52,667 bases of DNA from Candidatus Eiseniibacteriota bacterium. Lineage in GTDB: Bacteria; Eisenbacteria; RBG-16-71-46. The DNA is taken from the NCBI GenBank assembly GCA_044222065.1, contig JBGAOA010000031.1, forward strand, positions 1-52,667, given 5' to 3'. The notes beneath the pieces were generated by a model. That model saw nothing but the letters and a program-made list of their open reading frames with translations, was not told where the DNA came from and made no database searches. Positions 23,972 through 42,394 of this stretch are shown in pieces. The first letter of the stretch is position 1. The number at the start of each line of letters is the position of its first letter. The position numbers were made by a program, and so were the translations under genes.

Positions 23972-24007
23972 ACGGGCGGCGACCGCGAGGCCGCCGCCCG
24001 TTCTCTT
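23972..24007 (+). terminator. Hairpin terminator between convergent genes
   Basis: acgggcggcg...cgccgcccgt stem followed by tctctt. Confidence 0.55.
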
Positions 24008-24021
24008 GCCCCGCGGGTCGC

Positions 24022-25035
24022 TCACCCGCGCGGCGGTTGCCACTCGATCGGCGTCGCGTCGATCTCGATCCGCCGGCCGCGCCGGAGCAGCGTGAGCGTG
24101 AGCGCGCGTCCGATGACGTCCTCGGTGAGGAGCCGCTGTAGGTCGTCCACACCCGTGACCGGCGCTTCCGAGACGGCGACCACGATGTCGCCTTCCTCGA
24201 TGCCGGCGCGCGCCGCGGGACCACGGGGCTCGACGTGCAGCACGAGGAAGCCGCCGTCGCCCGCGAGCTGCATCTCGAGCACGCGGCGACGCTGGAGCTT
24301 GACCGTCTGGCCGCCGACGCCGATCCAGCCGCGGCGGATGCGGCCGTGCGGAATGAGGCGGCTCGCGACCCAGCGCGCCGTGTTCGCCGGAATCGCGAAG
24401 CACAGGCCCTGCGCGGGCAGGATCACGGCGGTATTGACGCCGACGACCTCGCCGCGCGAGTCCACGAGCGGTCCGCCCGAGTTGCCGGGGTTGAGCGCCG
24501 CGTCCGTCTGCACGATGCCGTCCATGAGGCGTCCCGAGCGCGCTCGCAGCGAACGCCCGGTCGCGCTCACGACGCCAGCCGTGACCGTGGCCTGGAAGCC
24601 GAGCGGATTGCCGATCGCGATCACGAGCTGGCCCGGGCGCAGCCGGCCCGAATCGCCGAGGCGCGCGACCGGCAGGTCGCCGCCCGGCACGCGCACCACG
24701 GCGAGGTCCGTGTCCGGGTCGTCGCCGACGAGCGTGCCCTCGCAGTGACGACCGTCCTGCAGCGTCACCTCGATGCCGCGCGCGCCGCTCACGACGTGGC
24801 TGTTCGTGAGCAGCAGCCCGTCGGGCGTGAACAGGAATCCGGAGCCGCTGCCGCCGCGTCCACGCGCGACGCGCACGTCGAGCTTCACGACGGCGGGCGC
24901 GACCGTGTCCACCGCGTGCGTGACCGCGCGCGAGTAGGCGTCGAGAAGCTCGGCGTCGTCGGATCCGGCGGGCGTCGAGGCGGCGTCCGGCGCGTCTCCG
25001 AGGCCGCTCACGAATTCGAAGCGGGGCGTGTCCAA
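24022..25035 (-). CDS. HtrA/DegQ-like trypsin serine protease with PDZ domain
   Basis: GSGSGF, TNSHVV (His), DLAV (Asp), QTDAALNPGNSGGPL (Ser); C-terminal PDZ. Confidence 0.92.
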   Translation of the reverse strand: MDTPRFEFVSGLGDAPDAASTPAGSDDAELLDAYSRAVTHAVDTVAPAVVKLDVRVARGRGGSGSGFLFTPDGLLLTNSHVVSGARGIEVTLQDGRHCEGTLVGDDPDTDLAVVRVPGGDLPVARLGDSGRLRPGQLVIAIGNPLGFQATVTAGVVSATGRSLRARSGRLMDGIVQTDAALNPGNSGGPLVDSRGEVVGVNTAVILPAQGLCFAIPANTARWVASRLIPHGRIRRGWIGVGGQTVKLQRRRVLEMQLAGDGGFLVLHVEPRGPAARAGIEEGDIVVAVSEAPVTGVDDLQRLLTEDVIGRALTLTLLRRGRRIEIDATPIEWQPPRG

Positions 25036-25113
25036 GGCGAAGTCCTCCCCGAGGTCGGTGGTGAGGACGTTCGATGCCGCGGGGCGCCGGGAGGAGCAGT
25101 CGGAGCCGGGCGC

Positions 25114-25788
25114 TCAGCGTTCGCGGTGCGCTTCGGCGACGTGACGCGCGACGTGGTGATCGAAGCGCGCGCGGGGGGCGATGTAGTAGATGGGAATCAG
25201 CGCGTAGAGGAACAGCGTGACCCGGGCGTTGAGCAGCGAAACCAGGATCGCGACCGCGTAGAGGGCGGGGCCCACCAGCGTTCGCCGCAGCACGTCGCGC
25301 ACGAAGTCGTCGTCGAGTTCGGGCGACACGAGCCGGTGCCCGCGGGTCGCGTACCACCACACGAGCGCCATCGCGAGACCGGTCGCGATCAGCGTCAGCC
25401 CGTAGGGCACGACCGCGATCGGCGTGCCGACGTACTCACCCATGAGCGCGGTCGGGAACGGGATGAAGGCGACGCACAGAAGGAACAGCAGATTCAGCCA
25501 CAGGAACGTGCGGTCGGTGCGGCGCACGAGGCTCAGCATCATGTGCTGGCCGACCCAGAACACGCCGATCACGACGAAGCTCACGAGCCAGCTCAGCAGC
25601 TTCGGCCACAACCCCATCAGCGCGTGCAGCAGCTCGAGGTCCTCCATGCCCTTCGGCAGCGACGGGACCTTGAGCTCGAAGATCAGCAGCGTCATGACGA
25701 TCGCGAACACGCCATCGCTGAAGGCCTCGAGGCGGTTCGTCGGAATCGAAGCGGGGTGCGGCTCGTGATGCGGATGACGCGCAGGCAC
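25114..25788 (-). CDS. TMEM175-family (DUF1211) potassium channel-like protein
   Basis: RLEAFSDGVFAIVMTLL, SFVVIGVFW..H, WLNLLFL...IPFPT; start uncertain. Confidence 0.88.
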   Translation of the reverse strand: MPARHPHHEPHPASIPTNRLEAFSDGVFAIVMTLLIFELKVPSLPKGMEDLELLHALMGLWPKLLSWLVSFVVIGVFWVGQHMMLSLVRRTDRTFLWLNLLFLLCVAFIPFPTALMGEYVGTPIAVVPYGLTLIATGLAMALVWWYATRGHRLVSPELDDDFVRDVLRRTLVGPALYAVAILVSLLNARVTLFLYALIPIYYIAPRARFDHHVARHVAEAHRER

Positions 25789-25872
25789 GCGGTGGGTTCC
25801 TCGGGGAGCGGGGTCGTGGAAGGTCGACGCCGGAATGCCGGCGACGTGCCGGGAGTTCCCGGGCGCCGCGAT

Positions 25873-26002
25873 CCTGGGTTCTGTCTGAGAACTCCGAGTG
25901 CAAGGCACGAGCGAGCGACGAGCGAGGCGTATCCTGCGGGATACTCCGCAGCGAGGAGCGAGCGAGAAACGCAGCACTCGGAATTCTCAGACAAAACCTA
26001 GG
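25873..26002. repeat. Palindromic MITE-like element, copy E1, with tandem-GA core
   Basis: 29-nt terminal inverted repeats (26/29 match); right end CTAG supplies the stop codon of the adjacent gene; core shared with 41170-41294. Confidence 0.75.
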
Positions 26003-27293
26003 CCGCGCGGGCCTCGCCGCCGTCGGCGCGCGCGAGCGTCCACGCGCGCAGCTCGATCGGTTCGTTCTCGTCCGCGACGGCGCCCGACCACACGCCGACG
26101 ACCGAGTGGCCCGCGACGAACGCGCGGCACGAGTTCGCGTCCGAGGGCGTGAGACCGGACAGCCAGCGCGCGAACCACGCTTCCGGGTTCGCGCCCGAGG
26201 CGCGCGCGACGATCACGCGCACGCCGCCGAGGCGCGCGAACGCGCCGGGCGTGTAAGGCCCTTCGGTGTCGAGCGCGACCCACGTCGGCTGCGTGGCGGC
26301 GAGCGCGTCGGCGAGCGCCGGCGGCTCGACCTCGCAGATCACGGCGCGCGCGGGGCGGTGCCGGTACACCGAGTGGTCGGCCGCGATGACGATGCCCTCG
26401 GGGAACTCGCCGCGCGCGGCGACGAGCGCGTGGATCACCTGCGAGGCCGCGTCGGCGTTCGCGCCGCCGACGAGCACGAGGCCGTCGCGCATCTCGTCGA
26501 GCAGCGCCAGCTCCTCGGGCCGGCCGTGAAAGCGCTCGCGCGCTGCCGGCGCGAGATCCACGGGCCTCAACCACAGCGACTCGCCGCGATGCTCGACGAT
26601 GCGGGTGACGCTCCACGAGCGGCCGCCCGTGAGGCGCGCGATGATGCGGCCGCCCGGGCTCGTGATGACACCGGGGCCGGTCGTGATGCGGCGCGACAGG
26701 TCCACGTACTCGGTCGTGCTCATGGCCGCGTCGTGCGATTCACGCCACTCGCCCTGGAGCTTCATGCGCACCGGGTGTCCGGGCCGGAACACGGTGCGGT
26801 CGTCGGGCCGGGTCGCGTTCGCCTGCGGCAGCGTGTCGCTCGGGCTCGCGCCGCGCGCCGAGCGCGCGTCCACGACCGCGGCGTGGAACGCCTGGCGCAG
26901 CTCGTCGAGCTGGCCCGCGCGCTCGCGCAGCTTCTCGGTCGCGGCGTCCGGCGGCCCGCCGCTCTGCGCGGACTTCTCGTCCATGCGGCGCGCGGCCTCG
27001 AGCATGAGCGCCTCGCTCGTGACCTCGATCGGGCCGTTCGGATCGGTCGTGTCGGGGCGGAACTCGAAGCGGCCGGTCTTCCACGCGAACAGCGTGTAGG
27101 CGCTCTGCTCGCCTTCGCGCCATTCCGGGTCGATCGCGTTCACGATCCGGCCGTCGTGGAAGTAGAAGTGCCCCTTCTTGCCGCCCTGCTCGATCGTCAG
27201 CACGCCGGAGGCGCGGTTGAGCGTGAGCAGCTGCCCGAGGTCGAACAGCGACAGCAGGCCGAGTTCGCCCGAGATCGCGTGACCGCCGGACAT
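25998..27293 (-). CDS. DUF4388 (PATAN-like) domain fused to a degenerate PilT-like domain
   Basis: GELGLLSLFDLGQLL...SGVLTI...FYFHDGRIVNA...WKTGRFEF...LMLEAARRMDE; C-terminal half is colinear with the neighbouring PilT; TGATG overlap. Confidence 0.8.
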   Translation of the reverse strand: MSGGHAISGELGLLSLFDLGQLLTLNRASGVLTIEQGGKKGHFYFHDGRIVNAIDPEWREGEQSAYTLFAWKTGRFEFRPDTTDPNGPIEVTSEALMLEAARRMDEKSAQSGGPPDAATEKLRERAGQLDELRQAFHAAVVDARSARGASPSDTLPQANATRPDDRTVFRPGHPVRMKLQGEWRESHDAAMSTTEYVDLSRRITTGPGVITSPGGRIIARLTGGRSWSVTRIVEHRGESLWLRPVDLAPAARERFHGRPEELALLDEMRDGLVLVGGANADAASQVIHALVAARGEFPEGIVIAADHSVYRHRPARAVICEVEPPALADALAATQPTWVALDTEGPYTPGAFARLGGVRVIVARASGANPEAWFARWLSGLTPSDANSCRAFVAGHSVVGVWSGAVADENEPIELRAWTLARADGGEARAA

Positions 27294-28369
27294 CACGCCG
27301 CCTTCGCGCGCGGATCGGCTCCGGCGGTTCCGAGCATCTCGCGCACGACCATGTGCGGAGTGGCTTCCTCGGTGCTGATGTTCCCGGCGCGGACGTGCGC
27401 GACGAGGCTCTCGTCCATCGTCTGCATGCCTTCGCGCTTGCCGGTCTGGATCACCGACGGCAGCTGGAACGTCTTGCGCTCGCGGATGAGGGCCGCGACC
27501 GCCTGGTTCGCGACCAGCACTTCGAGCGCGAGCATGCGGCCACCGCCGTCCTTGCGGCGCAAGAGCCGCTGCGCGAGCACGCCCTTCAGGCTCTCGGACA
27601 GCATGTAGCGCACCTGCGCCTGCTTCTCGCCCTCGAACGAGTCGAGGATGCGGTCCACGGTCTGCGACGCGCTCATCGTGTGAAGCGTGCCGAACACGAG
27701 CTGTCCGGTCGCGGCGGCGCTGATCGCGAGCGCCATCGTCTCGGGGTCGCGCAGCTCGCCGACCAGGATCACGTCCGGGTCCTGGCGCAGCGCCGCGCGC
27801 AGGCCCTGGTTGAAGCTCGGCGTGTTGCGCCCGATCTCGCGCTGCGTGACGAGCGCGGTCTTGTTCGCGTGCCGGTATTCGATCGGGTCCTCGAGCGTCA
27901 GGATGTGCTTCCGCTGCGTGCGGTTGATGTGGTCGATCATCGCCGCGAGCGTGCTCGACTTGCCCGAGCCCGGCGGGCCCGTGACGAGCACGAGGCCGCG
28001 CGAGAACTCGGTGAGCTTCAGGATGTGCGGCGGCACGCCCAGCTGGTCGAGCGACGGGATGTGGTTCGGCAGGATGCGGAACGCGCCGGCGAGGCCCTTC
28101 CACTGCTCGTAGACGTTGCAGCGCACGCGCACGATCCCCGGGACCTCGTAAGAGAAGTCCACGTCGCGCGACTTCTCGAAGCGCGCGCGGATCTCGGCGT
28201 CCATGATCTCGAACATCAGCGTTTCGGCCAGCTCGCGCGACAATTCCTCGTAGGGAATCGGAGTGATCTGGCCGTGCAGCCGGACCATCGGCGCCGAGCC
28301 CGTGGTCATGTGCAGGTCGGAAGCGCCCTGCTCCTTGACCAGCTTGAAGATGGCATCGATGCGCGCCAT
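27293..28369 (-). CDS. pilT: Type IV pilus retraction ATPase PilT
   Basis: ASDLH, Walker A GPPGSGKS, EDPIE, ALRQDPDVILVGE, TGQLVFGTLHT, AALIRERK, GMQTMD. Confidence 0.95.
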   Translation of the reverse strand: MARIDAIFKLVKEQGASDLHMTTGSAPMVRLHGQITPIPYEELSRELAETLMFEIMDAEIRARFEKSRDVDFSYEVPGIVRVRCNVYEQWKGLAGAFRILPNHIPSLDQLGVPPHILKLTEFSRGLVLVTGPPGSGKSSTLAAMIDHINRTQRKHILTLEDPIEYRHANKTALVTQREIGRNTPSFNQGLRAALRQDPDVILVGELRDPETMALAISAAATGQLVFGTLHTMSASQTVDRILDSFEGEKQAQVRYMLSESLKGVLAQRLLRRKDGGGRMLALEVLVANQAVAALIRERKTFQLPSVIQTGKREGMQTMDESLVAHVRAGNISTEEATPHMVVREMLGTAGADPRAKAA

Positions 28370-28588
28370 GCGCGGTGTCTCCCTGGGATCCTGCCGGGCC
28401 CGGGCGAGCGGGGGATTTCGCCTCTGGTGTCGGCCGGCCGCGACCGGGACTCCAGTCCGACGTGGGAACGCGGTTCGAGGGACCGCAAGGGCGCGAGCCG
28501 GGGCTCGGGAGCGGAAAAGCACCCGCACCCCTCAATTCGCACGATCGAGGCGCCGATACCCGCGACAGGTCTCGAGGAGGAGAGAGCC

Positions 28589-29110
28589 GTGGCAGGCTAC
28601 ATCTCGAAGATTCGAGTCGCCGTGCGTCTGGCCATCGTCGGCCACTTGCCGATGGAAGGCGCGTTCTCGCTGGAGCCGACCGCGCAGCATCGCGCCGGAC
28701 CCGAGACGATTCTCGAGCGGCTGAACTCGCACGCGCGCATGATTCCGTTCCATCGCGTCGAAGACGACGTCACGCTGCTCATCAACCGGCGCGACATCGA
28801 GTACGTCGCCGCGGGCGACGACGTGACGATGGACTACGTCATGCCGCCGACCTACCGCATCACGCACCAGGAGCGCGTGCGCGTGAGACTCGCGAGCGGC
28901 GCCGAGCTGACGGGCGTGCTGCGCCTCGAGCTGCCGGACGACCTGAACCGGGTGTCGGACTATCTGAACGGTCCCGAGCAGTTCTTCCCGCTCGCGACGC
29001 CGGGCGAGGTGCTGCTCGTGAACAAGCGCCACCTGAGCGTCGTGCGCCTGTTCGAATCGTCGCCGCGTCCCGTCGAGGACGGCGACTCGCGGCTCGTTTA
29101 CCCGGCGTAG
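28589..29110 (+). CDS. Hypothetical protein of two tandem homologous small beta domains
   Basis: GAGGAGG SD; internal repeat ERLN..MIPF..LLINRRDIEYV / DYLN..FFPL..LLVNKRHLSVV. Confidence 0.75.
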   Translation: MAGYISKIRVAVRLAIVGHLPMEGAFSLEPTAQHRAGPETILERLNSHARMIPFHRVEDDVTLLINRRDIEYVAAGDDVTMDYVMPPTYRITHQERVRVRLASGAELTGVLRLELPDDLNRVSDYLNGPEQFFPLATPGEVLLVNKRHLSVVRLFESSPRPVEDGDSRLVYPA

Positions 29111-29202
29111 GCCGGCGGACGGTTGCGGCTTCGATACCCCGCGGATAACCTCGCGCGCTCGTAACGACGAGCCCGTTCCACGCACCCCCGCGAGGACCCC
29201 GC

Positions 29203-31239
29203 ATGCACTCGATCGAACCCGCACGCCCGCTCGCCGGCGTGAACCTCGAGGCGCTCCCGTCGCCCGGCGCCGCCGTCGCCGCCTCGTCCGGCGCCGCTGC
29301 CGTGATCCGCGGCCGCGCGCTCATCTTCTGGGACCCGAAGGTGCCCGGGAAGAAGCTCGACGCGATCGACACCGACCAGATCACACCCGCCGCCGACTGC
29401 GTGAGCGAGAGCCTCGAGACGCTGGATGAGCGCTGGAAGGCGGGCTCGTTCCGCTACCTGATGCCCGACTTCCGCAAGCGCGTGCACGCGGGTGAGACGT
29501 TCGTGATCGCGGGCGACCGCTTCGCGATCGGTTCGTCGCGCGAGATGAGCCCGGCGGGGCTCAAGGGCGTCGCCGAGGAAGCGGGCCTCGAGATGGTCGT
29601 CGTGTGCGGGAACAACATGGGCGACATCTTCCGCCGCAACGCGCTCAACCTCGGGCTGCAGGTCGTGCAGAGCCCCGAGGCGGTCGCGGACGCGCAGGAG
29701 GGCGACGAGTTCACGTTCGATCCCCAGTCGCGCGCGCTCGCGAACGTGACGCGCGGCAAGACGTACGATCCGGTCGCACTCACCCCCAAGGAAGACGAGA
29801 TCCGCCGCACCGGCGGCATCTTCACGATCGGGCGGCGCGAGTTCCGCGAGTCCGCGCTCCGCAAACCGGACGTCGCGTGGGCCGACCCCGACACCGCGCG
29901 CCGCCTGACGACGACGGAGCAGATCGTGTGGGCGCACCGCGTGGACAAGAACGCGGAGCTCCGGCCGGGCGCGACGCTGCGCGTCTACGCCGATCTGCTG
30001 CCCGCGAGCGACGGCACGGCGCCGTTCTCGATCCACACGTTCAACCAGATCACGGGCGGGAACGCGATCTACCCGCGCCGGCTCGCGATCGCGAACGACC
30101 ACTTCGTCTTCACGGGCGTGGATGCGGACGACAAGCAGACCTCGATCGGGCGCGCGTTTGCGAAGCGCTTCGACATCCGGAAGCCGTACTACGCGACGCC
30201 GGGCGACGGCATCTTCCACTTCTACTTCCCCGAGCAGGGCCTCGTGCAGCCCGGCATGTTCATCCCCGGCGCCGACTCGCACTCGCGCGCGTACGGCGCG
30301 TACGGCGCGGTCGGCATGGGCGTGGGCTCGACGACGCTCGGCTTCGGCTGGTCCACGGGCTACGTCTACTTCACGGTTCCGAAGGCGCGGCGCGTCACGT
30401 TCGCGGGCGCGCTCAAGCCGTGGGTGAGCGGCAAGGACATCGTGCTCGAGCTGCTGCGCCGCTGGGGCGCGAAGCAGTCGCAGGGGATGAGCGTCGAATT
30501 CGTGGACGCGTCGATGCAGCTGCCGATCGCCTATCGCAACACGATCTGCAACATGATGGCCGAGGCCGAATCGCTGAACGGCATCTTCGCCGCCGACGAC
30601 GTGACGTACGAGTGGTACCGCTCGAAGGGCATGGCCGAGCTGCCGTACCCGCGCATCGCGCCGGGCGCGGACGCGCGCTACGAGATCGACGAGACGCTCG
30701 TGCTGTCGGACGTCGCGCCGATGATCGCGAAGCCGTTCAGCCCCGGGAACGCGTTCCCGGCCGACGAGGTCGCGAAGGAGCGCATCGCGTTCGACAAGGC
30801 GATGATCGGCTCGTGCACGAACGGCGGCTACGAGGACCTGCTGTCGGCGGCGCTCGTGCTCGCGGCCGCGCGCGCGAAGGGCGCGACAAAGGCCGCGAAG
30901 GAATTCGTGATCTTCCCGGGCTCGCGCGGCGTGGGCGAGGCGATCGAGCGTCCCGAGCCGCGCCTCGAGGGCGCGAGCATCGCCGACACGTTCCGCGGCG
31001 TCGGCGGCGTGATCCGCGAGTCGTGGTGCGGACCGTGTTTCGGGCAGGGCCGCGACGCGCTCGCGAAGGGCCAGAAGGCGATCACGAGCTTCAACCGCAA
31101 CTGGACGAACCGCATGGGCCTCGGCGGCGAGGGCTACCTCGCGAGTCCGTCGGTCGTCGCAGCGAGCGCGATGCTCGGCTACATGGGCCCGCCGAGCGAA
31201 CTCGGCCTCGCGTGGGAGGCGGAGCGCTTCGAGGTGTAG
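29203..31239 (+). CDS. Aconitase-family [4Fe-4S] dehydratase: LeuD-like swivel domain fused N-terminal to a LeuC-like domain
   Basis: IDTDQI, GSSRE, IFRRNALNLG; GADSHS, IGSCTNG, WCGPCFG, SFNRNW.NRMG, LASPSVVAASA. Confidence 0.88.
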   Translation: MHSIEPARPLAGVNLEALPSPGAAVAASSGAAAVIRGRALIFWDPKVPGKKLDAIDTDQITPAADCVSESLETLDERWKAGSFRYLMPDFRKRVHAGETFVIAGDRFAIGSSREMSPAGLKGVAEEAGLEMVVVCGNNMGDIFRRNALNLGLQVVQSPEAVADAQEGDEFTFDPQSRALANVTRGKTYDPVALTPKEDEIRRTGGIFTIGRREFRESALRKPDVAWADPDTARRLTTTEQIVWAHRVDKNAELRPGATLRVYADLLPASDGTAPFSIHTFNQITGGNAIYPRRLAIANDHFVFTGVDADDKQTSIGRAFAKRFDIRKPYYATPGDGIFHFYFPEQGLVQPGMFIPGADSHSRAYGAYGAVGMGVGSTTLGFGWSTGYVYFTVPKARRVTFAGALKPWVSGKDIVLELLRRWGAKQSQGMSVEFVDASMQLPIAYRNTICNMMAEAESLNGIFAADDVTYEWYRSKGMAELPYPRIAPGADARYEIDETLVLSDVAPMIAKPFSPGNAFPADEVAKERIAFDKAMIGSCTNGGYEDLLSAALVLAAARAKGATKAAKEFVIFPGSRGVGEAIERPEPRLEGASIADTFRGVGGVIRESWCGPCFGQGRDALAKGQKAITSFNRNWTNRMGLGGEGYLASPSVVAASAMLGYMGPPSELGLAWEAERFEV

Positions 31240-31323
31240 GCGGCGGCTCGCGGCGCGTGATTTCCGCGCCGCTCCGCCGGTCTCCGGAAGCGAGCACCCG
31301 CGGACCTTTCCCGGAGACCAGCG

Positions 31324-32283
31324 ATGACTCGACGCTCGTTCGCACTCGCGCTCCTCACGACGCTCGTCGCGTGGCGCGGCGATGCACACGCCACGACCGT
31401 CGTCTACGACGCGTCCCTCGGCACCCTGCCCAGCTCGCAGGGGTTCACGCTCGGGGAAGTCGAGCCGTCGAGTCCGGCGCCGTTCGTCTCGGGCGGTGTG
31501 CTGCACCAGGGGCCGACCACCGAGACCGGGCAGCAGTACTGGGACCGGTCGTCGGAATCGTTCGAGTTCTCGAACGGTTTCGTGTTCGAACTTCGCGGGA
31601 AGATCCTTCAGTCGACGTATGAGCTGCTGCTCCAGGACGGCAGCCAGCGCTCGGGTTTCTATCTCGAAGCGATCGACGCGACGGGCCATCGGCTGACGCT
31701 CGGATTCGGGGGCGGCGGACTCACGCTCAACACGGACGCCCCGCTGATGCCGGCGAACGGCATTCCGTTCCTTCCGGACCCCGCCCCGGCCACGACGGCG
31801 GACTACCGCGTCGTCACGCAATCGGGCCTCGCGACGCTGTTCGTGAACGGCCTGCCGCGGGGATCGACCGCGATCGAGCCCGCCGCCTTCGCGCCGGGCG
31901 CGAGCCGCATCCTGTTCGGCGATCTCACGAGCGCCGGGGGATCGCAGGTCGAGATCGAGAGCGTGCGAGTCGTCTTCCCGCTCCCCGCCGCCGACGTCGC
32001 CGGCTCGGACGACCGGGTCCTGCCGACGTTGCGCGCCCTCGCGGCCGCGACGCCCGGCACCGCCGAGTTCGCGCTCGAGGGCTTCGGCGAAGAAGCGCCG
32101 CGACTGCGCGTCTTCGATGCCGCCGGCCGGCGCGTGCGAGCGCTCGAGGCGGGAGCGGGCTCGACGCGCATCCGGTGGGATGGCCGCGACGCGGCGGGAC
32201 GCGCGTGCGCCGCGGGGCTCTACTTCGCCGCGGCCGAAGCGGGCGCGGGGCGCGCGGCCGCCCGGGTGGCGCTGACGCGCTAG
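31324..32283 (+). CDS. Secreted protein with FlgD-Ig-like C-terminal domain
   Basis: Signal peptide; RVFDAAGRRVRAL...WDGRDAAG...GLYF. Confidence 0.78.
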   Translation: MTRRSFALALLTTLVAWRGDAHATTVVYDASLGTLPSSQGFTLGEVEPSSPAPFVSGGVLHQGPTTETGQQYWDRSSESFEFSNGFVFELRGKILQSTYELLLQDGSQRSGFYLEAIDATGHRLTLGFGGGGLTLNTDAPLMPANGIPFLPDPAPATTADYRVVTQSGLATLFVNGLPRGSTAIEPAAFAPGASRILFGDLTSAGGSQVEIESVRVVFPLPAADVAGSDDRVLPTLRALAAATPGTAEFALEGFGEEAPRLRVFDAAGRRVRALEAGAGSTRIRWDGRDAAGRACAAGLYFAAAEAGAGRAAARVALTR

Positions 32284-32451
32284 CGTTCGCGGCGCCTTTC
32301 CGGACGCAGGCGCTGCCGCGCGGCCACCCCCGCGCATCCGCGAATTCGCCGCGCCCGTCGCGCCGATTCGTCGCACGCGCGGCGCGCGCGTAGGATGCGT
32401 GCCGCATTTCCCCCCCGCACGTTCCACGCACACTTCCCGGAAGGTCCAGGC

Positions 32452-34506
32452 ATGTTCCGTCGATCGAGTTTCCACACCCTCCCCGTGCTCGCCGCCGTCG
32501 CGCTCGCCGCGCTCGCGCCGGGCGCGTTCGCCGCGACGCCGCTCCCGCCCGACAAGGATCCGCTCGTCAGGAACAGGGACGCGTCGGTCCGCCCGGGCGA
32601 CGACTTCTTCAAGTACGCCTGCGGCGGCTGGCTCAAGCAGAACCCCATTCCCGCTTCCGAGCGCGGCTGGGGCATCGGGAACCTCGTCAACGAAGAGACG
32701 TACCGCCAGTGCATCGAGATCTGCGAGACGGCGGCGGCGGCGAAGGCCGCTCGCGGCACGAGCGAGCAGAAGGTCGGCGACTTCTGGGCCGCCGGCATGG
32801 ACTCGGCGAACGCCGAGAAGCTCGGCGTGAAGCCGCTCGCGCCCTACCTCGACCGCATCGCGAAGCTCGAGTCGCGCGCCGAACTGCTCGACCTCGCCGG
32901 CGAGTACCACGTGTACGGATTCCGCCCGCTGTACGCGGCCGTCATCTGGCAGGACGAACGGAACAGCGAGAAGTACGTCGTCCACCTGCTGCAGGGCGGC
33001 ATCCGCCTGCCGGATCGCGACTACTACTTCGGCACCGACGCGAACACGGTCCGCATTCGCGAGGCGTACCAGAAGCACGTCGCCGCGATGTTCCGGCTGC
33101 TCGGCGACGACGCGAAGGCGGCGGAGCGCGCGAGCGCTACGGTGTTCCGCATCGAGCGCGAGCTGGCCGCGCGCTCGCGCACGCTCGAAGAGCGCCGCGA
33201 TCCGTGGGCGAACTACCACAAGATGTCCGCGGCCGAGCTGCAGAAGCTCACGCCGACCATCGCCTGGAGCCGCCAGTTCGAGACGATGGGCTTCGGACCC
33301 ATCGACACGGTCATCGTCGGTCAGCCCGAGTTCTACGCGAAGCTCGACTCGTGCCTGAAGGCGTATCCGCTCGAGGACTGGAAGACGCTGTTGCGCTGGA
33401 ACGTGCTCAACAGCATGGCGAACCGGCTCAGTTCGCCGTTCGAGCTCGAGAGCTTTCACTTCTACGGCACCGTCATGTCCGGCATTCCGACGCCGCGCCC
33501 GCGCTGGAAGCGCGTCCTCGACGCCGAGGAGGACGGCATCGGCGAACTGCTCGGGCAGGTGTGGGTGAAGAAGTACTGCTCGCCCGCGACGAAGGCGCGC
33601 TACGAGAAGCTCGTGCAGGACATCTTCGCCGTGTATCGCGACCGCATTCGCGCGCTGCCGTGGATGACCGAAGCGACGAAGCAGAAGGCGCTCGCGAAGC
33701 TCGACCGCGTGACGGCGAAGGTCGCGTACCCGGACCACTGGCGCGACTTCTCGGCGCTCGAAATCGGCCGCTCGTCGTACGCCGCGAATCAGGTGAACGT
33801 GAACGCGTGGTGGTGGAAGCACGAGGCGTCGAAGCTCGGCAAGCCGATCGACCGCACGCTGTGGGACATGACGCCGCAGACGTACAACGCCTACTACGAC
33901 GGCTCGAAGGTCGAGATCGTGCTGCCGGCGGCGGCGTTCATGCTGCCGGGCCTGCCGGACGAAATGGTGGACGACGCGATCCTGTACTCGTACGCGGGCG
34001 GTTCGACGATCGGCCACGAGATCACGCACGGCTTCGACGACGAGGGCCGGCAGTTCGACGCGCAGGGCAACATGAACCCGTGGTGGAGCGACCAGGACTC
34101 CACGCAGTTCGCGGCGCGCGCGGACAAGCTCGTCGCCCAGTTCGACGGATACGTGATCGGCGAGAAGCACGTGCGCGGACGCGCGACGCTGGGCGAGAAC
34201 ATCGCCGACCTCGGCGGCGTCGTGCTCGGCTACGAGGCGTTCAAGAAGACCGAGCAGTGGAAGAAGGGCGAGAAGCTCAACGGACTCACGCCCGACCAGC
34301 GCTACTTCCTCGGCTACGCGCTGTCGTGGCTCGGCCAGCGCCGCCCCGAGGCGCTCCAGCAGCAGATCATGACCGACGTGCACGCGCCCGGATTCCTGCG
34401 CGTGAACGGGCCGGTCGCGAACGTGCCGGCGTTCTACGAGGCGTTCGGCATCCAGCCCGGGGACGCGATGTACCGCGGTGACGACGTGCGCGTCGCGATC
34501 TGGTAG
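32452..34506 (+). CDS. M13 family (neprilysin/PepO) metallopeptidase, secreted
   Basis: PGDDFFKYACGGW, IGHEITHGFDDEG, TLGENIADLGG, DVHAP...RVNG. Confidence 0.95.
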   Translation: MFRRSSFHTLPVLAAVALAALAPGAFAATPLPPDKDPLVRNRDASVRPGDDFFKYACGGWLKQNPIPASERGWGIGNLVNEETYRQCIEICETAAAAKAARGTSEQKVGDFWAAGMDSANAEKLGVKPLAPYLDRIAKLESRAELLDLAGEYHVYGFRPLYAAVIWQDERNSEKYVVHLLQGGIRLPDRDYYFGTDANTVRIREAYQKHVAAMFRLLGDDAKAAERASATVFRIERELAARSRTLEERRDPWANYHKMSAAELQKLTPTIAWSRQFETMGFGPIDTVIVGQPEFYAKLDSCLKAYPLEDWKTLLRWNVLNSMANRLSSPFELESFHFYGTVMSGIPTPRPRWKRVLDAEEDGIGELLGQVWVKKYCSPATKARYEKLVQDIFAVYRDRIRALPWMTEATKQKALAKLDRVTAKVAYPDHWRDFSALEIGRSSYAANQVNVNAWWWKHEASKLGKPIDRTLWDMTPQTYNAYYDGSKVEIVLPAAAFMLPGLPDEMVDDAILYSYAGGSTIGHEITHGFDDEGRQFDAQGNMNPWWSDQDSTQFAARADKLVAQFDGYVIGEKHVRGRATLGENIADLGGVVLGYEAFKKTEQWKKGEKLNGLTPDQRYFLGYALSWLGQRRPEALQQQIMTDVHAPGFLRVNGPVANVPAFYEAFGIQPGDAMYRGDDVRVAIW

Positions 34507-34522
34507 CGCGCACCGCGAAACG

Positions 34523-34557
34523 ACGAGCCCGGCGGCCGCGAAGGCCGCCGGGCTCGT
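34523..34557. terminator. Hairpin terminator between convergent genes
   Basis: 15-bp perfect stem acgagcccggcggcc/ggccgccgggctcgt. Confidence 0.6.
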
Positions 34558-34576
34558 TCGTTCCGGGACCGCTCGC

Positions 34577-35422
34577 TCAGCGCTCGAGCACGATGCGCCG
34601 CGATTCGCGCGCACCGGGGAGGTCGAGCCGCAGGTAATAGACGCCGGCGCGGGCCAGCGTCCCGGCGGCGGTGCGGCCGTCCCACGCGCCGCCGTGGACA
34701 CCGGCGGCGAGTTCGCGGTCGAACGCGACCGCGACGCGTCGGCCCGAAGCGTCGAACACTTCGGCGCGGCCGCGACCCGCGACGGCGACCGCGAAGCGGA
34801 ACGTCACGACATCACGCGTGGGGTTCGGCGAGGGCGCGCCGACGAAGCCCGTGCGCGCGGCGAGCGGGCCGTCCGCGACGTCGACCGTGGCGTCGGTCAC
34901 CTTCACGAAGCCGCGCATGTTGAAGAACTGGCCGTGCGGGCGGCAGTGGTACGGATAGAGCCCGGGTGTCGGGAAGTCGACCTGGAACTCGGTCTCGCTC
35001 GGGGTGATCGGTGCGTCCCACAGCGAGCCGGCATTCAAGTCGCCGGGGTTCCCGCTCGTCGTCGTGTGGAAGCCGTCCGAGAACTTGAACAGCACGCTTT
35101 CGCCGGTGTGGATCTTGACCGTGTCCACCTGCGTTCCCGCGCTGCCGTCGGTGTCGAACCGGAAGCTGATCACGAGTACCGTGTCGGCGGCGGGCGGTGC
35201 GTTGATGACGCCGCCGTGCGCGGGATTCGACGCGTACCATTGCGCGACCTCGCGGCGCATCACGGCCGGGTCCATCGCGTGGCCGTGTTCGACGTAGGCT
35301 TCGTTCGTGGCGTGCGACTTCGAAGTGTCCGCGCGCCGGGCGAGCGCGACGAGTCCGGCGATGGCGACGAGGACGACGAACGACGCGGACAGCGGGCGGG
35401 CGAGGCGGTGCAAGGCCGGCAT
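34577..35422 (-). CDS. Secreted cupredoxin (type-1 Cu) with FlgD-Ig-like C-terminal domain
   Basis: GFHTTT...YPYHCRPHGQFFNMRG (His, Cys, His, Met ligands); PSPNP...WDGR...GVYYLRL. Confidence 0.85.
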   Translation of the reverse strand: MPALHRLARPLSASFVVLVAIAGLVALARRADTSKSHATNEAYVEHGHAMDPAVMRREVAQWYASNPAHGGVINAPPAADTVLVISFRFDTDGSAGTQVDTVKIHTGESVLFKFSDGFHTTTSGNPGDLNAGSLWDAPITPSETEFQVDFPTPGLYPYHCRPHGQFFNMRGFVKVTDATVDVADGPLAARTGFVGAPSPNPTRDVVTFRFAVAVAGRGRAEVFDASGRRVAVAFDRELAAGVHGGAWDGRTAAGTLARAGVYYLRLDLPGARESRRIVLER

Positions 35423-35684
35423 GAGGGACCTCGGCGGGTTCGGCTCCGCAGCGACGGAGGGGGAGGATCGGTGAGCGAGTGGACAGCGTAAGAACCTCGG
35501 CGCGCTGGCCGAAGGATTTCCGCGCGAGCGCGAGTCGCGCGGAGCGAATTCGCGCCGCGTGTTTCGTGCGGGCGAACGCGGCGCTCGCCCGGACGCCCGC
35601 GGCGCCGGCCGCGTGCGCGGCGCGGAGGCTCCGCTGGCACGAGCCGGCGTCCGTGCGTCGTCGCGCCGGCGCGGAGGCGGGCGC

Positions 35685-37340
35685 GTGAGCCGCCGTCGCG
35701 CCGCGGCCGCGACCACGCCTCGCGCGACCGCAGCCCACGCGTGGACGACGCGCCGATTCGTCTCGATCGCCGGCCTCGTCGCGGCGGCGCTCGTCGCGAT
35801 CGGTTACGGGCGCACGCTCGGCTTCCCGTTCCAGTTCGACGACTTCGACTGGATCCGGGACAACGCCGCGCTCGGTCCGCCGCTCGACCCGGGGGCGATC
35901 TGGCGCTTCCGGCCGTCGCGCTTCGTGCCCGACCTGTCGTTCGCGCTGCAGATCGCGGCGTGGGGCCGCGACGTGTCGGCGCTGCGGCTCGCGAACCTCG
36001 CGATCCACGTGCTCGCGAGTGTGCTCGCGGGCGCGTGCGCGCGCGCGATCGGGCGGCAGACCTCGCCGGGCGCGACGCGCCGCGCCGACGTGGCCGGACT
36101 GCTCGCCGCGGGGCTGTTCGCGGCGCATCCGCTGGCGACGCAGGCCGTGACGTACGTCACGCAGCGCATCACCTCGCTCACGGCCGTGCTCGAGCTGGCC
36201 TGCCTCGCGGCGTTCCTGAGCGCGCGGGCGAGCGGCTCGCGCCGCGCGTGGAGCGCGACGTGGGCGTTCGGCTTCGCCGCGGCGCTCGGCAAGGAGATGG
36301 CGGCGGCGCTGCCGCTCGCGCTCGCGGCGATCGAGTGGGTGCTCCGGCGCGCGGGGGCCGCCGGTCGCGCGCCGTGGCCGCGGCCCCTGCCGCTCGCGCT
36401 CGTGCCGGTGCTGTGCGCCGTGCTCGCGCGCGCGCCGCTCGGGCCCGAGGCGCGCGTCGCCTCCGCGTTCGCCGAGACCGGCGACCTCACACGCACCGAG
36501 TACGCGCTCACGCAGTGCGTCGTCGTGCCGCGCTACGCCGCCCTGTTCGCGTGGCCGCGCGGCCAGCAGCTCGATCCGTGGATCGCGCCGCGCCGCGCTC
36601 CCGATGTGGCGGTGCTCGCCGGCGCGGCCGCGCTCCTGCTCGCGCTCGCCGCCGCCCTCGCGGGCGCGCGCGGCGCCGCCTCGCTGCGTCCGGCGCGCTG
36701 TGGTTCCTCGCCACGATCGCGCCCGAGTCGAGCGTCGTGCCGATTCGGGACCTCGCGAACGAGCACCGCGCGTACTTGCCGATGGCGGGCTTCCGCGTGG
36801 ACCGCCGCGGCGGCGCTCGCCGCGTCCGGCGCCCGCGGCGGTCCGCGTCGGCGCGCCGTTGCCGCGATCGCGGCGATCGCGATCGTGCTCGCGCTCGCGT
36901 TCGCGACCCGCGCCCGCAACGAGGTCTGGCGCAGCGGACGCGCGCTCTGGGGCGACACCGTCGCGCGCTCGCCGCGCTCGGCCCGCGCGCAGAACAACTA
37001 CGGTCTCGCGCTCGCCGAGGACGGCGACCCGGCCGGGGCCGAGGCCGCGTTCCGCGCCGCGATCGCCGCCGAGCCGCGGCACCTCGCCGCACGCGCGAAC
37101 CTCGGCATGCTCTACGGCCGCGCCGGCCGGCTCGACGAAGCGATCGCGATCCTCGAGGAGGGCCGCCGCTACGGGCCCGGCGACCCGCGGCTCAACTCGA
37201 ACCTCGGCGTCGCCTACTGGCAGCGCGGCGACACCGCGCGCGCCGCCGCAGCGTTCGAGCGCGCGCTCGCAACCGATCCGGCCGAGCGCGGCGCGCGCTC
37301 GAATCTGAACCGGCTGCGCCTCGGGCTGCCGCCGCGCTGA
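35685..37340 (+). CDS. TMTC-like (GT-C) membrane protein with C-terminal TPRs; compensated double frameshift at about 36690-36800
   Basis: FQFDDFDWIRDN, FRP, NLAIH, FAAHPLATQAVTYVTQR, GKE; NEHRAYLPM lies in an alternate frame; RNEVW..LW, NNYG TPRs. Confidence 0.78.
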   Translation: MSRRRAAAATTPRATAAHAWTTRRFVSIAGLVAAALVAIGYGRTLGFPFQFDDFDWIRDNAALGPPLDPGAIWRFRPSRFVPDLSFALQIAAWGRDVSALRLANLAIHVLASVLAGACARAIGRQTSPGATRRADVAGLLAAGLFAAHPLATQAVTYVTQRITSLTAVLELACLAAFLSARASGSRRAWSATWAFGFAAALGKEMAAALPLALAAIEWVLRRAGAAGRAPWPRPLPLALVPVLCAVLARAPLGPEARVASAFAETGDLTRTEYALTQCVVVPRYAALFAWPRGQQLDPWIAPRRAPDVAVLAGAAALLLALAAALAGARGAASLRPARCGSSPRSRPSRASCRFGTSRTSTARTCRWRASAWTAAAALAASGARGGPRRRAVAAIAAIAIVLALAFATRARNEVWRSGRALWGDTVARSPRSARAQNNYGLALAEDGDPAGAEAAFRAAIAAEPRHLAARANLGMLYGRAGRLDEAIAILEEGRRYGPGDPRLNSNLGVAYWQRGDTARAAAAFERALATDPAERGARSNLNRLRLGLPPR

Positions 37341-37474
37341 CGCGCTGCCCGCGCGCGTCGTGGCGCGAAATGGCCGGAAACCGCGTCGCGCCTCGGCCAT
37401 CCGAAGACACGTTTCCCGATCCGCGCCGCGGGTCCCGATCGAATTCCCGGCCTCACCTCCGACGAGGAACCCCC

Positions 37475-38047
37475 ATGCGACTCCTGTCGTTCGCACTCGC
37501 TGCCGTCCTGTGCCTCGCTGCCGCGCCGTCGTTCGCTTCGTTCGGAGGCGGGAAGAAGTCGGACGCCCCGGCCTCGACCGATACGCCCCAGGAGAAGGCC
37601 GCGCTCACGCCGCGCCAGGAGGCCGAGCGCTGGTACTCGGACGCGTTCGAGGAAGTGACGAAGGCCAAGAAGGACGCCGCCGAGGGCAAGACCAAGGGTG
37701 TCGAGAAGCGCTGGCAGAAGGCGCTCGATCGCGGGCTGCGCGCGACCGAACTCGACCCGAAGTACCACGAGGCGTGGAATCTCGTGGGCTACACGTCGCG
37801 CATGCTGGGCAAGTTCGACGCGTCGGTGGACGCGTACCTCAAGTCGATCGCGCTCAAGCCCGACTACGCCGCGGCGCGCGAGTACCTCGGCGAGAGCTAC
37901 GTCGAGCTGGGCAAGCTCGCCGAGGCGAAGGAGCAGCTCGCGTGGCTCGACAAGCTGAACGCCTCCGAGGACGCGAAAACGCTGCGCGCCGCGATCGAGG
38001 CGAAGGAAGCGAAGTCGCCGGCCGCGAGCGAAGGCGACTCGAAGTAA
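37475..38047 (+). CDS. Secreted TPR protein
   Basis: Signal peptide; DPKYHEAWNLVGY, KPDYAAAREYLGESY. Confidence 0.85.
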   Translation: MRLLSFALAAVLCLAAAPSFASFGGGKKSDAPASTDTPQEKAALTPRQEAERWYSDAFEEVTKAKKDAAEGKTKGVEKRWQKALDRGLRATELDPKYHEAWNLVGYTSRMLGKFDASVDAYLKSIALKPDYAAAREYLGESYVELGKLAEAKEQLAWLDKLNASEDAKTLRAAIEAKEAKSPAASEGDSK

Positions 38048-38226
38048 GGCGCGCCCCGGGCGGCCTCCGGCCCACGCGGCCGGAGGCCGTTCGGCTTCGA
38101 CGCGAATTCGGTCTTGTGGGGGGCCGGCGCGCCTTCGATACTGCGCCTCGCCGCAGGCCGATCCCACCTCGCCGTGCGGCTCCCGAGACTTCCGACCGCC
38201 CCGTCCGAAGGAAGGAGAGCCTGCCG

Positions 38227-39141
38227 ATGGCCCCGCTGTCCGCGACGTTCTTCGAAGGCGTGCGCGACTTCGCGCAGGGCATCAACTCGATGGCGCCCGA
38301 CCTCGTGTTCGGGCCCAGGCCCGGCAGCGGGCTCGGCCTCTACCACTACACCGACCTCGGTGCGCTCAGCGGCATCGTGCAGTCGAACGACCTGTGGCTG
38401 ACGCACGCGCGCTACTCGAACGACGAGGACGAGAGCGTCTACGGCGAACGACTCGCGCGCGAGCGCGTGCAGGCCTGGACGTCGAACACCGCCGGCGCCG
38501 ACGCCTTCCGCGACGCCGTGCTCGCGGCGCTCGACGACGCGGAGGGCAGCGAGGCGTACGTGTGCTGCTTCTGCGAGCAGGACAATCTGCTCGGACACTG
38601 GCGCGCGTACGGAGCGAACGGCACCGGCGTGAGCCTCGGATTCGTCACCGACGGCTTCGCGCGCTACACGGAGGAGGCGGAAGCGCGCGGGCTCGTGCTG
38701 CGGCTCTGGAAGGTGTTCTACGAGCGCAAGACGCAGGAGCGCATCGTCGAGCGTGCGATGACGTTCTCGTTCGCGGAACAGTGGCGCGCCCAGGATCCGG
38801 CCGAGAAGGCGCTGCTCGCTCGCGACCTGCTGCGGTTCTTCATTCCGACCTTCAAGAACCCGGACTTCGCCGAAGAGCGCGAGTACCGGCTGATCCTGTC
38901 GCCGACGGGGCCGAACGCCCTGCCGCCGCGCTACCGAACCGGGCGCGGCATGCTCGTGCCGTACCACGTGCTGTCCTCGGTGCTCGCGAACCCCGCCACG
39001 TCGCTGCTGCCGATCCGTTCCGTCCGCGTCGGCCCCGGGCCGCGCAAGCTCGAGAACGCCCGCAGCGTCGAGATGCTGCTGCGTCAGTCGCGCGCCGACG
39101 CGGTCGCGGTCCACGCCTCGGACACGCCGTACCGCGGCTGA
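38227..39141 (+). CDS. DUF2971 domain protein
   Basis: LYHYT, LWLT....NDEDE, CFC...DNLLGHWRAYG..GVSLGF, K..F.EEREYR, VGP; AAGGAG SD. Confidence 0.82.
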   Translation: MAPLSATFFEGVRDFAQGINSMAPDLVFGPRPGSGLGLYHYTDLGALSGIVQSNDLWLTHARYSNDEDESVYGERLARERVQAWTSNTAGADAFRDAVLAALDDAEGSEAYVCCFCEQDNLLGHWRAYGANGTGVSLGFVTDGFARYTEEAEARGLVLRLWKVFYERKTQERIVERAMTFSFAEQWRAQDPAEKALLARDLLRFFIPTFKNPDFAEEREYRLILSPTGPNALPPRYRTGRGMLVPYHVLSSVLANPATSLLPIRSVRVGPGPRKLENARSVEMLLRQSRADAVAVHASDTPYRG

Positions 39142-39170
39142 CGGCGCCGCGGCTCCGCGCGGAAAGCGAA

Positions 39171-39198
39171 GGCCCCCGGTCCGTGAGGACCGGGGGCC
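39171..39198. terminator. Hairpin terminator between convergent genes
   Basis: 12-bp stem ggcccccggtcc-gtga-ggaccgggggcc. Confidence 0.6.
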
Positions 39199-39237
39199 GC
39201 ATCGCGCGGGCGAGCGAAGGAGTCCGCGCGAACGAGC

Positions 39238-39858
39238 TTACTTGGCCGCGGCTTCAGGCTTGGCCTTCGTCGCCTCGACCTGCAGCGAGATCGTGACGTC
39301 GTCGCCGAGCAGCGTGCCGCCCTGGTCGAGCGTCTTGTTCCACGAGATGCCGTAGTCCTTGCGGTTCACGGTCGTCGTGGCCTCCCAGCCGCCGCGCACG
39401 CCCATCGCGTTTCCGCCGATGCCGACCGCGCCGAGGCCGAGCTGCGTGGCCTCGAGCGTCACGGACTTCGTCACGCCGCGCATCGTGAGGTCGCCGACGA
39501 TCTGGAACTTGCCGTCCTTGCCCGGCACCACCTTCGTGCTCTTGAACGTGATGTTCGGGAAGTGCTCGAGGTCGAAGAAGTCCGCGCTCTTCAGGTGGTT
39601 GTCGCGGCGCTCGTTCTCGGTGTTGATGCTGCTCACCGGGATCGTCACCTCGACCGACGAGTTCGCGAGGTTCTTCTCGTCGAGCTGGATCGTGCCGGAG
39701 ATCTCGTTGAAGCGGCCGGGCACCTTCGAGAAGAAGTGGCGGACGGTGAAGCCGGCCTGCGAGTGCGAGGCGTCGATGTCGAACTTGTCGGCGGCGAACG
39801 CGGGCGCGGCGAGCAGCACGGCGGCCACGGCGAACCACAGGGTCGAACGGTGCTTCAT
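39238..39858 (-). CDS. yceI: YceI-family polyisoprenoid-binding protein
   Basis: IDASHS..F.VRH, GRF, RDNHLKSADFFD, GDLTMRGVTK, NRKDYG, GDDV. Confidence 0.93.
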   Translation of the reverse strand: MKHRSTLWFAVAAVLLAAPAFAADKFDIDASHSQAGFTVRHFFSKVPGRFNEISGTIQLDEKNLANSSVEVTIPVSSINTENERRDNHLKSADFFDLEHFPNITFKSTKVVPGKDGKFQIVGDLTMRGVTKSVTLEATQLGLGAVGIGGNAMGVRGGWEATTTVNRKDYGISWNKTLDQGGTLLGDDVTISLQVEATKAKPEAAAK

Positions 39859-40145
39859 GGGGCAAGCCTCTCCTTGAGAAATGGGGTCGTGCTTCGATTC
39901 GGGCGATTGCAGAGCCGTCGGGGAGTTTCGAAGCGGCGGCAATCTAGCAGCGCGCCGGGGTGCCGGGAACGCGAGCGTGGCACCTTCGACGCTCGGAACG
40001 GCGAAAGTTCGCGTTCCGAGGGCCACCTTTTGCCACGGCTTGACCTGCGTTTACGCGGGCGCGACGGCGGCGGCGGCGGGCGCGCGCCGCGGGCCCGCCG
40101 CGCCGCGCTTGTGGGCCCCGGGAGTGGCGGCTACTGTCCGTCGCC

Positions 40146-41162: not shown

Positions 41163-41169
41163 GGATCGA

Positions 41170-41294
41170 AGCAGGCAGCCGAAAAGACCGAGGACAAGGC
41201 GGCGAGGGAGTGAGGAACGAGGTGCATCCGCAGGATGCTCCGCAGTGACGAACGACCGAGCGAACGCAGTGATCGGGCTTTTCAGCAGCCTGCT
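41170..41294. repeat. Palindromic MITE-like element, copy E2, with tandem-GA core
   Basis: 22-nt terminal inverted repeats (19/22 match; right end TTTTCAGCAGCCTGCT); core shared with 25873-26002. Confidence 0.75.
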
Positions 41295-41329
41295 CGGGAA
41301 GGATCCGACGGCAACCGGCGAGGACCGCC

Positions 41330-42355: not shown

Positions 42356-42394
42356 GCCGTCGTTCGCGGCGGCGCGCGCGAGGCGCGCCGGTGC

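Follow-up and report, generated by a model that had tools for sequence, protein, structure and literature searches.

Imperfect palindromes of about 100-160 bp lying between genes in both orientations, several of them with TA at their borders, are known in bacteria as ERIC, Correia/NEMIS and RUP. For most of these repeats, we know of no match to the ends of a cognate insertion sequence (IS) as exact as the one reported here. Nezha of Anabaena and Nostoc, described with ISNpu3, measures less than 200 bp, lacks a transposase gene and has terminal inverted repeats (IRs) equal to those of a full IS, which may lie in another genome; it is also flanked by a short duplication, has a very stable predicted hairpin and displays filled and empty sites between relatives, as far as the cited sections of Delihas (2011, PMC3184786) go. 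According to the cited sections of Dziewit et al. (2012, PMC3281130), ISs of the IS427 group measure 832-865 bp, are mostly flanked by 2-bp repeats and carry two open reading frames joined by frameshift, and those of the IS5 group measure 1282-1485 bp. Two copies of an element alike to Nezha in all the traits listed, E1 and E2, lie in the window, i.e., the whole 52,667-nt stretch of DNA analyzed here, which is contig C66 of genome G000 (4.21 Mb, 131 contigs, 71.8% G+C). E1 and E2 are very probably copies of a transposable element of the miniature inverted-repeat type (MITE) with terminal IRs of IS5-family ISs.

The host is an uncultured bacterium of sludge and soil, and the labels of the metagenome-assembled genomes (MAGs) that bear the element give the phylum as Candidatus Eisenbacteria. 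All genomes compared were MAGs, in which IS copies are often left unassembled. The element falls within the usual definition of a MITE as worded in the cited sections of PMC3184786; this kind of element was already known, and what is added here is the IS5-family link, the CTAG/TA target and the empty site. Literature searches retrieved nothing on repeats of Eisenbacteria or on MITEs with a G·A ladder.

Sequence and fold of E1 and E2

Between its 16-nt ends, the element has a core composed of an asymmetric internal loop, where GCAAGGC faces AACGCAG, a stem whose Watson-Crick steps of 1-2 bp alternate with tandem G·A/A·G mismatches (the GA ladder), and an apical hairpin. The strand that reads GA in the ladder is hereafter the GA strand. 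The parts of both copies are listed below, R1 being the covariance model of the element.

25877-25998, plus strand: E1, MITE proper (122 nt) on its GA strand (R1 match 25875-26000, 115.2 bits; fold; sequence)
25875-25876, no strand: probable left copy of the duplicated TA of E1, decayed to TG, with C25874 before it (other copies show C-TA here)
25999-26000, no strand: probable right copy of the duplicated TA of E1, followed by G26001; with C25998, it makes the TAG stop of the minus-strand gene (sequence)
25877-25892, plus strand: left terminal IR of E1, GGTTCTGTCTGAGAAC, a variant of IS5-family IRs, with its partner at 25983-25998 (arm comparison)
25900-25906, plus strand: GCAAGGC, 5' side of the conserved asymmetric internal loop, with its partner AAACGCAG at 25967-25974 (positions at least 90% conserved in 80 copies from relatives)
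25907-25927, plus strand: 5' strand of the GA ladder, with the 3' strand at 25951-25966 (sequence, fold, covariation)
25929-25944, plus strand: apical hairpin, GTATCC, loop TGCG, GGATAC (fold, covariation)
41171-41293, plus strand: E2, MITE proper (123 nt), with arms GCAGGCAGCCGAAAAG and inverted partner (R1 match 41169-41295, 130.4 bits)
41169-41170 and 41294-41295, no strand: flanking TA of E2, decayed to AA and TC, respectively (sequence)

RNAfold returned one long hairpin for E1 (-72.0 kcal/mol, z -8.35) as well as for E2 (-61.3 kcal/mol, z -5.26), with 0 of 200 shuffles equally stable in each case, and both folds placed the GA dinucleotides opposite each other between Watson-Crick steps of 1-2 bp. 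The preliminary description of this DNA had reported the GA/GA hairpin at 25873-26002, and re-reading of the sequence agreed with it. Pairwise alignment of E1 and E2 likewise reproduced the eight GA kept in E2, along with identical CAAGGC, TCCGCAG and AACGCAG, and the five base-pair changes of the stem, all compensated and none broken (C-G to G-C twice, C-G to T-A, G-C to A-T and T-A to C-G). The second copy was confirmed at about 41169-41295, but the two are not just a pair, as 34 R1 matches were obtained in G000. The outer arms had been called unrelated; they are both variants of IS5-family IRs. The E1-type arm was also found at six further G000 copies. A solo E1-type arm, TA followed by GGTTCTGTCCGAGAAGCCCGAGCGC, occurs near 6390 of contig C87 (minus strand) with unrelated sequence after it, and would represent a copy that was truncated or else one end of an IS missing from the assembly.

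Insertion sequences with the same ends

Two ISs were found whose terminal 16 nt equal those of MITE subfamilies at 16 of 16 positions, in line with the MITE-like arms proposed earlier. Comparison of 12-mers between all MITE arms and DDE_Tnp_1 loci led to locus L191 of genome G110, which holds a 1421-bp IS with a 400-aa DUF772+DDE_Tnp_1 transposase and perfect 19-bp IRs (CAGGCTGCTGAAAAAGGGT). Its ends are those of the E2-type subfamily, and they are identical over 16 nt in its homologues from G113 and G044 (83-87% identity) and from G166 (44%).

The second IS, with the ends of the main G000 subfamily, was obtained by scanning metagenomes with the arm of that subfamily. Out of 63 distinct loci, 59 were given to R1 (four overlapping ones were left out), of which 22 held a MITE and 5 held an IS. 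In these five contigs, two inverted matches lie 909 bp apart; between them are a DUF4096 frame and a second frame, DDE_Tnp_1/DDE_Tnp_1_2, with a GGGAAAAGGGGGG slip site at their junction, while the IRs, GGCTCCGTTTGAAAAC, lie between C-TA and TA-G. The 22 metagenomic MITEs carry the same ends as this 909-bp IS. Judged by size, domains or frames and flanks rather than by a tree or by ISfinder, the 909-bp IS appears to fit the IS427 group and the 1421-bp IS the IS5 group.

G000 itself retains a trace of the 909-bp IS outside the window, at C3:90144-90504, where positions 1-167 and 715-909 are joined into a 361-bp, internally deleted copy (82-85% identity) flanked by C-TA and TA-G. The ends of this remnant, GGCTCCGTTCGAAGAC, are common to some MITE copies. 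In addition, GCAAGG stands at nearly equal distance from the end in the 909-bp IS and in the MITE, so that unlike subterminal sequences on the left and right of an IS may have given rise to part of the asymmetric loop; outside GCAAGG, the core matches neither IS. Other DDE_Tnp_1 loci (L192-L200) were rejected as sources of the ends, theirs being unrelated, and DDE_Tnp_4 (Harbinger-like) transposases were rejected as movers, with a match in 0 of 5 genomes.

Target site and empty sites

C-TA…TA-G is the arrangement found around the ISs and the best-kept MITE copies. All IS ends observed have CTA in front of them, namely 7 ends of the 1421-bp IS and its homologues and 10 ends of the 909-bp IS. 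The flanks of the IS copy L203, CTAA on the left and TTAG on the right, are better accounted for by duplication of TA within CTAG than by one of 4 bp. Insertion would accordingly take place at CTAG, with the central TA duplicated. Among 112 MITE copies, 18 had TA no more than about 4 nt from the stem end on both sides, 53 had it on one side and 41 on neither. In own copies that have lost TA (e.g., L001, L009, L010, L020, L024), CCAGG or CCTGG mostly stands at the ends in place of CTAGG or CCTAG; such a change would be expected under very-short-patch-type T·G repair or under a general AT-to-GC pressure.

In G000, CTAG is depleted about 15-fold, with 713 occurrences compared to 10,770 expected from base composition, so that stop codons of the form C+TAG make up a large share of the usable sites. 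TA itself occurs 32,747 times compared to 83,496 expected. Since the element begins with G, it would restore the TAG stop after insertion into C+TAG, which would bring copies to lie right behind genes in either orientation. The C-TA…TA-G placement also explains why the end of E1 supplies a neighboring stop codon, as stated in the preliminary description: the TAG stop of the DUF4388-domain gene is the complement of 25998-26000, i.e., the last base of E1 and the flanking TA. Gene calls around the copies were heuristic, and a crude gene caller, with E1 added, gave at least 11 of 33 own copies overlapping a TAG stop, in both orientations.

The site of E2 is empty in relatives. The two genes that flank it, coding for a Peptidase_Mx-like and a Ddl-like protein, are adjacent in 18 of 18 relatives with a spacer of 29-102 nt, compared to 170 nt in G000, and R1 detected no element at this site in any of the 17 relatives searched, the element being present in G000 only. 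E2 is thus an insertion of the G000 lineage and the element is mobile, as had been suggested as a possibility before this check. At the E1 site, none of 11 relatives had the element beside the DUF4388 gene; the TMEM175-like gene is not its neighbor there, hence no clean empty site was obtained. Tallies for the E2 gene pair, for the DUF4388 neighborhood and for the Y1_Tnp gene discussed below take in one unpublished genome, G026. What looks like a near-direct repeat lies around E2, with GGATCGA on the left (41163-41169) and GGATCCGA on the right (41301-41308); relatives have AAGGATCCGG in the empty spacer.

Copies, variants and host range

Iterated nhmmer searches of G000 yielded 32 core copies. 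Of these, 31 entered alignment A2 (L004, cut by a contig end, was left out), from which R1 was built with a hand-written structure. R1 then returned 34 matches on 29 contigs of G000, including two weak ones (46 and 43 bits). The copies compared from relatives numbered 80, from 15 other genera. The length ranged around 122-127 nt, with most copies at 125-127 nt and variants up to about 166 nt, and 1-nt indels between copies exclude a common reading frame, meaning that the element is non-coding.

The long variants bear an extra hairpin in the 5' ladder strand (CGACCCACGC-TTC-GCGTGGGT), another one that replaces AACGCAG (GGGCACCCGCC-GAAG-GCGGGTCCC), or both; the carriers among own copies are L016, L018-L022, L024, L025 and L029-L032. 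These branch hairpins were rejected as independent repeats, given 15 and 6 matches inside the element and, outside it, only loose chance-like matches and two possible fragments. At the other extreme, two metagenome contigs hold short forms of 69 and 62 nt (L251:1601-1671 and L264:1601-1664), made of two IS-type ends and one or both sides of the GCAAGGC/AACGCAG loop, with neither ladder nor apical hairpin. Hidden Markov models of the half-elements detected no split copies in G000 with the two halves on either side of a gene. On contig C113, two copies in inverted orientation, separated by 2 kb, enclose heptosyltransferase-like and SAM hydroxide adenosyltransferase-like genes and no transposase.

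The element is confined to one family of Candidatus Eisenbacteria. Within the family, R1 matches were obtained in 16 of the 24 other genera (1 to 50 per genome), and none came from the 16 genomes of other families in the order or class. In the phylum-wide sample, the covariance-model search called for by the preliminary description found further copies in 34 of 59 other genomes of the family (f1), but none among the 91 genomes sampled from 16 other families. Presence varied among species within a genus (4 of 11 in g2, 2 of 9 in g22). A 19-mer of the core was found at 24 places in contigs of one genome per species; 14 of these lay in MAGs labelled Candidatus Eisenbacteria and were all R1-positive, while among the remaining 10 places nine were R1-negative and one reached 24 bits.

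DNA contigs of two other metagenome runs break within the repeat, stopping inside E1 (25903-25912) and starting inside E2 (around 41232), which indicates that these repeats break short-read assemblies here; R1 can be used to mask them in annotation. In four runs over 24000-43000 (two labelled RNA and two DNA), all of them assembled contigs, the RNA contigs gave low-depth coverage of neighboring genes and no RNA contig was assignable to E1 or E2, so that they have no bearing on the transcription of the element. Variant letters at 25977-25994 in those runs may stem from other copies.

Conservation and covariation of the core

In the 80 copies from relatives, the outer 18 positions had no consensus and were yet paired, while positions 20-108 were conserved. 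The assigned pairing register was supported. In own copies, 90.6% of the cells were paired, compared to 75.2% in shuffles (0 of 500 as high) and 34-40% in slid registers, and 30 of 42 pairs displayed double changes. In relatives, in an alignment fitted to the model, 91.7% were paired and 40 of 42 pairs displayed double changes, including all 10 ladder pairs and 7 of the 8 apical pairs. For the outer 16 nt, joint change is expected because one transposase must bind both ends, and the arms of the subfamilies are probably diverging IS5-type IRs, obliged to change on both ends together; such change is not expected for the core.

The GA/GA steps are frequent but optional. Steps 1 to 4 were kept in 37, 49, 60 and 60 of the 80 copies from relatives, respectively, and replaced by standard pairs in 24, 8, 10 and 3 (45 in all). 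All four steps occurred together in 14 of 31 own copies and in 24 of 80 from relatives, 7 of the 80 had none, and L104 and L107 have a fully Watson-Crick stem in place of the ladder. Only 9 of the 45 standard-pair replacements consisted of GA to TC on one arm, which would be suggestive of a template-switch signature, not decisive. The earlier claim of a covarying core is therefore upheld for covariation, in own copies and in relatives, while the conservation of GA that it included is partial.

The two strands differed in predicted stability. With RNA parameters, the GA strand was the better-folding of the two in 95 of 111 copies, and with DNA parameters in 101 of 111, for mean gains of 6.4 and 3.3 kcal/mol, respectively. 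Mismatches on the GA strand were more often G·T than A·C, with 97 compared to 51 in relatives and 53 compared to 38 in own copies.

As to described RNA families, a match to which had been named as a check on novelty, Rfam gave 0 matches at gathering scores in the whole window. Around both copies, with E-values up to 10, matches were at chance level, the best ones reaching 16.2 bits (threshold 60) and, for GA-cis, 15.7 bits (threshold 34.7). Compared by eye to kink-turns, where a three-nucleotide bulge leads straight into tandem G·A/A·G beside a regular helix, each ladder step forms a symmetric 2x2 loop that has no bulge, and the apical GA/GCA loop is 2x3 and outside the kink-turn register.

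Gene neighborhood and orientation

The genes next to the two copies are as follows.

25998-28535, minus strand: DUF4388-domain gene; its TAG stop includes the last base of E1 (gene call, domain match)
25114-25776, minus strand: TMEM175-like channel gene downstream of E1, its start set by coding signal only (gene call)
40044-41162, plus strand: Peptidase_Mx-like gene upstream of E2 (domain match, synteny)
41330-42355, plus strand: D-Ala-D-Ala-ligase-like (Ddl-like) ATP-grasp gene downstream of E2 (domain match, synteny)

The GA strand of E1 is antisense to both of its neighbors, two minus-strand genes, and that of E2 is sense, between two plus-strand genes. The flanks of 113 copies (33 own and 80 from relatives) were compared by a phase test of G+C at third codon positions. 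A gene 3' end lay on the left, sense to the GA strand, in 53 cases and on the right, antisense to it, in 53, while 51 gene 5' ends lay beside the element. Copies favor gene ends without strand preference, and this symmetry argues against a strand-specific role inside mRNAs.

Discussion

With ends that are IRs of IS5-family ISs, the MITE is most likely moved in trans by the DDE transposases of these ISs. The complementarity of the core arms would be preserved through single-stranded fold-back of the element, be it as DNA at replication or transposition or as read-through RNA. Their match could be maintained by selection on active copies or by correction through template switching from one arm to the other. 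The G·A steps would be tolerated since they stack inside the helix on one strand, and they would keep the duplex from being a perfect long palindrome. The conserved core is the one unusual trait of an otherwise ordinary kind of repeat.

Several observations weigh against this reading. Because TA is absent from both ends in 41 of 112 copies, its duplication is deduced from the better-kept copies and from the ISs, and the empty sites of E2 are too diverged to reveal the exact joint. No IS with the E1 arm variant was found, the searches returning only MITE copies and the one solo arm. No intact cognate transposase was found in G000 either, where tblastn detected only the C3 remnant and, on contig C40, fragments of 27-43% identity. 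Close homologues of the transposase of the 1421-bp IS occur in just 3 of 60 other genomes of the family, plus the relative at 44%, which leaves most MITE-bearing genomes with no assembled partner; as MAGs often drop ISs, this is weak evidence either way. In MITEs, it is normally the ends that are kept and the core that drifts. In the present element, the reverse is seen across genera, and a transposase that binds the ends alone does not explain it. The excess of G·T over A·C on the GA strand in relatives further hints at a strand-specific constraint.

Movement by other enzymes was considered. IS630/Tc1-type transposases insert at CTAG and duplicate TA, and their DDE_3 genes were found in 6 of the 15 f1 relatives searched. 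The corresponding IS630-family elements, of about 1.13-1.24 kb (L134 in G009, L184 in G010 and L186 in G008), also sit as C-TA…TA-G with ends that read TA followed by GTGGTCCGTCAG…, so that two unrelated IS families use the same rare target in these genomes. However, no DDE_3 match was obtained in G000 despite its 34 element copies, and the ends of these three share only scattered bases with the MITE arms, compared to 16 of 16 for the IS5-family ends, which makes a MITE of IS630/Tc1 type highly improbable. The element could also be a hairpin repeat of the REPIN or SRM kind, processed in single-stranded DNA form by a Y1 (RAYT) transposase or by a small GIY-YIG Ssn nuclease. REPINs are hairpins with compensated stems, as is the whole element, and a single-copy Y1_Tnp (IS200/RAYT-like) gene, a copy pattern typical of RAYTs, lies at C107:15692-16030 in G000 and is kept in 38 of 41 relatives of the order sample. 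This gene is nevertheless present regardless of the element (e.g., in G002, G005, G007 and all f3 genomes), and its flanks in 6 genomes held no element (best match 21 bits). The sole GIY-YIG match in G000 falls within a 674-aa frame, the ends match DDE-type IRs instead, and the SRM pattern given in the cited sections of PMC11893778 fits 0 of 32 own copies. This explanation is largely refuted and hardly credible. An integron attC site was rejected as well, the RYYYAAC and GTTRRRY boxes being absent by eye from the hairpin foot and the copies being scattered on 29 contigs, not arrayed.

The alternative that bears on the conserved core itself is that of a functional, strand-specific structured RNA or single-stranded DNA module, such as a protein-binding platform of stacked sheared G·A pairs, that rides in IS5-type ends and is conserved through its use by the host or by the transposition machinery. 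The conservation of the core but not of the outer arms across genera, the double changes in ladder and apical pairs, the occurrence of one core between the ends of two different ISs, the greater stability of the GA strand with its G·T excess, and the restriction of the optional branch hairpins to the inside of the element all speak for it. They are countered by the symmetric orientation to genes (E1 being antisense to both neighbors), by GA/GA steps lost or replaced in many copies, by the short forms devoid of ladder and apical hairpin, and by the failure of any Rfam family to match. Moreover, given that the element is lacking from 25 of 59 family genomes and from the E2 site of relatives, it is not required at any conserved locus. 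Such a module is unlikely. Of the strand-specific module put forward in the preliminary description, the better folding of the GA strand stands, while the orientation of the copies goes against it. A role of the core as RNA or protein-loading site is made unlikely by the random orientation of the copies, the optional nature of the GA steps and the short forms that have no core.

With the MITE reading, a candidate structured RNA becomes a MITE family of an uncultured phylum, with likely parent ISs, a target site and, for E2, a demonstrated empty site. Of wider interest are the reason why conservation falls on the core instead of the ends, and the possibility that tandem G·A steps offer long palindromic mobile DNA a general route to single-stranded folding without a perfect palindrome in the duplex. 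A more speculative proposal, which we consider rather improbable, is that the core is the persistent unit, i.e., a strand-specific folded module long kept and re-fitted with the IRs of at least two different IS5-family elements because the fold itself is needed. If so, the fold might load a protein on single-stranded DNA or RNA during mobilization, or serve the host as an RNA element, and the MITE would be one whose selected part is a structured single strand instead of the ends bound by the transposase.

Comparison with known systems

Among dispersed palindromes, ERIC, Correia/NEMIS and RUP differ from the present element in hosts and sequences. REPIN/RAYT and Ssn/SRM (Chenal et al. 2025, PMC11893778, for SRM, in the sections cited) resemble it as hairpin-forming dispersed repeats whose orientation is given by non-palindromic bases. 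They differ in that the gene of their defining enzyme is not flanked by the present element, in the absence of the SRM pattern, and in that the ends here are IRs of DDE-type ISs. The bcr1 repeat of the Bacillus cereus group, as outlined in the cited sections of PMC3184786, is also dispersed, measures about 155 bp, is flanked by short direct repeats and keeps its fold through compensatory changes. The bcr1 repeat is reported to be transcribed and cruciform-like, with two stem-loops; the predicted fold of the present element is one long stem with G·A steps.

Within the limits of the cited sections of PMC3281130, the 909-bp IS is like members of the IS427 group in its two overlapping frames, slippery run, 16-nt IRs and TA flanks, and the 1421-bp IS falls within the 1282-1485 bp size range of the IS5 group. 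E1 and E2 differ from both ISs, being without transposase and sharing only the terminal 16 nt with them, plus possibly GCAAGG. Nezha, which pairs a small element with the IRs of a full IS in the same manner, is set apart on two counts: in the present element, the core is better conserved across genera than the ends, and this one core carries the ends of two different IS5-family ISs.

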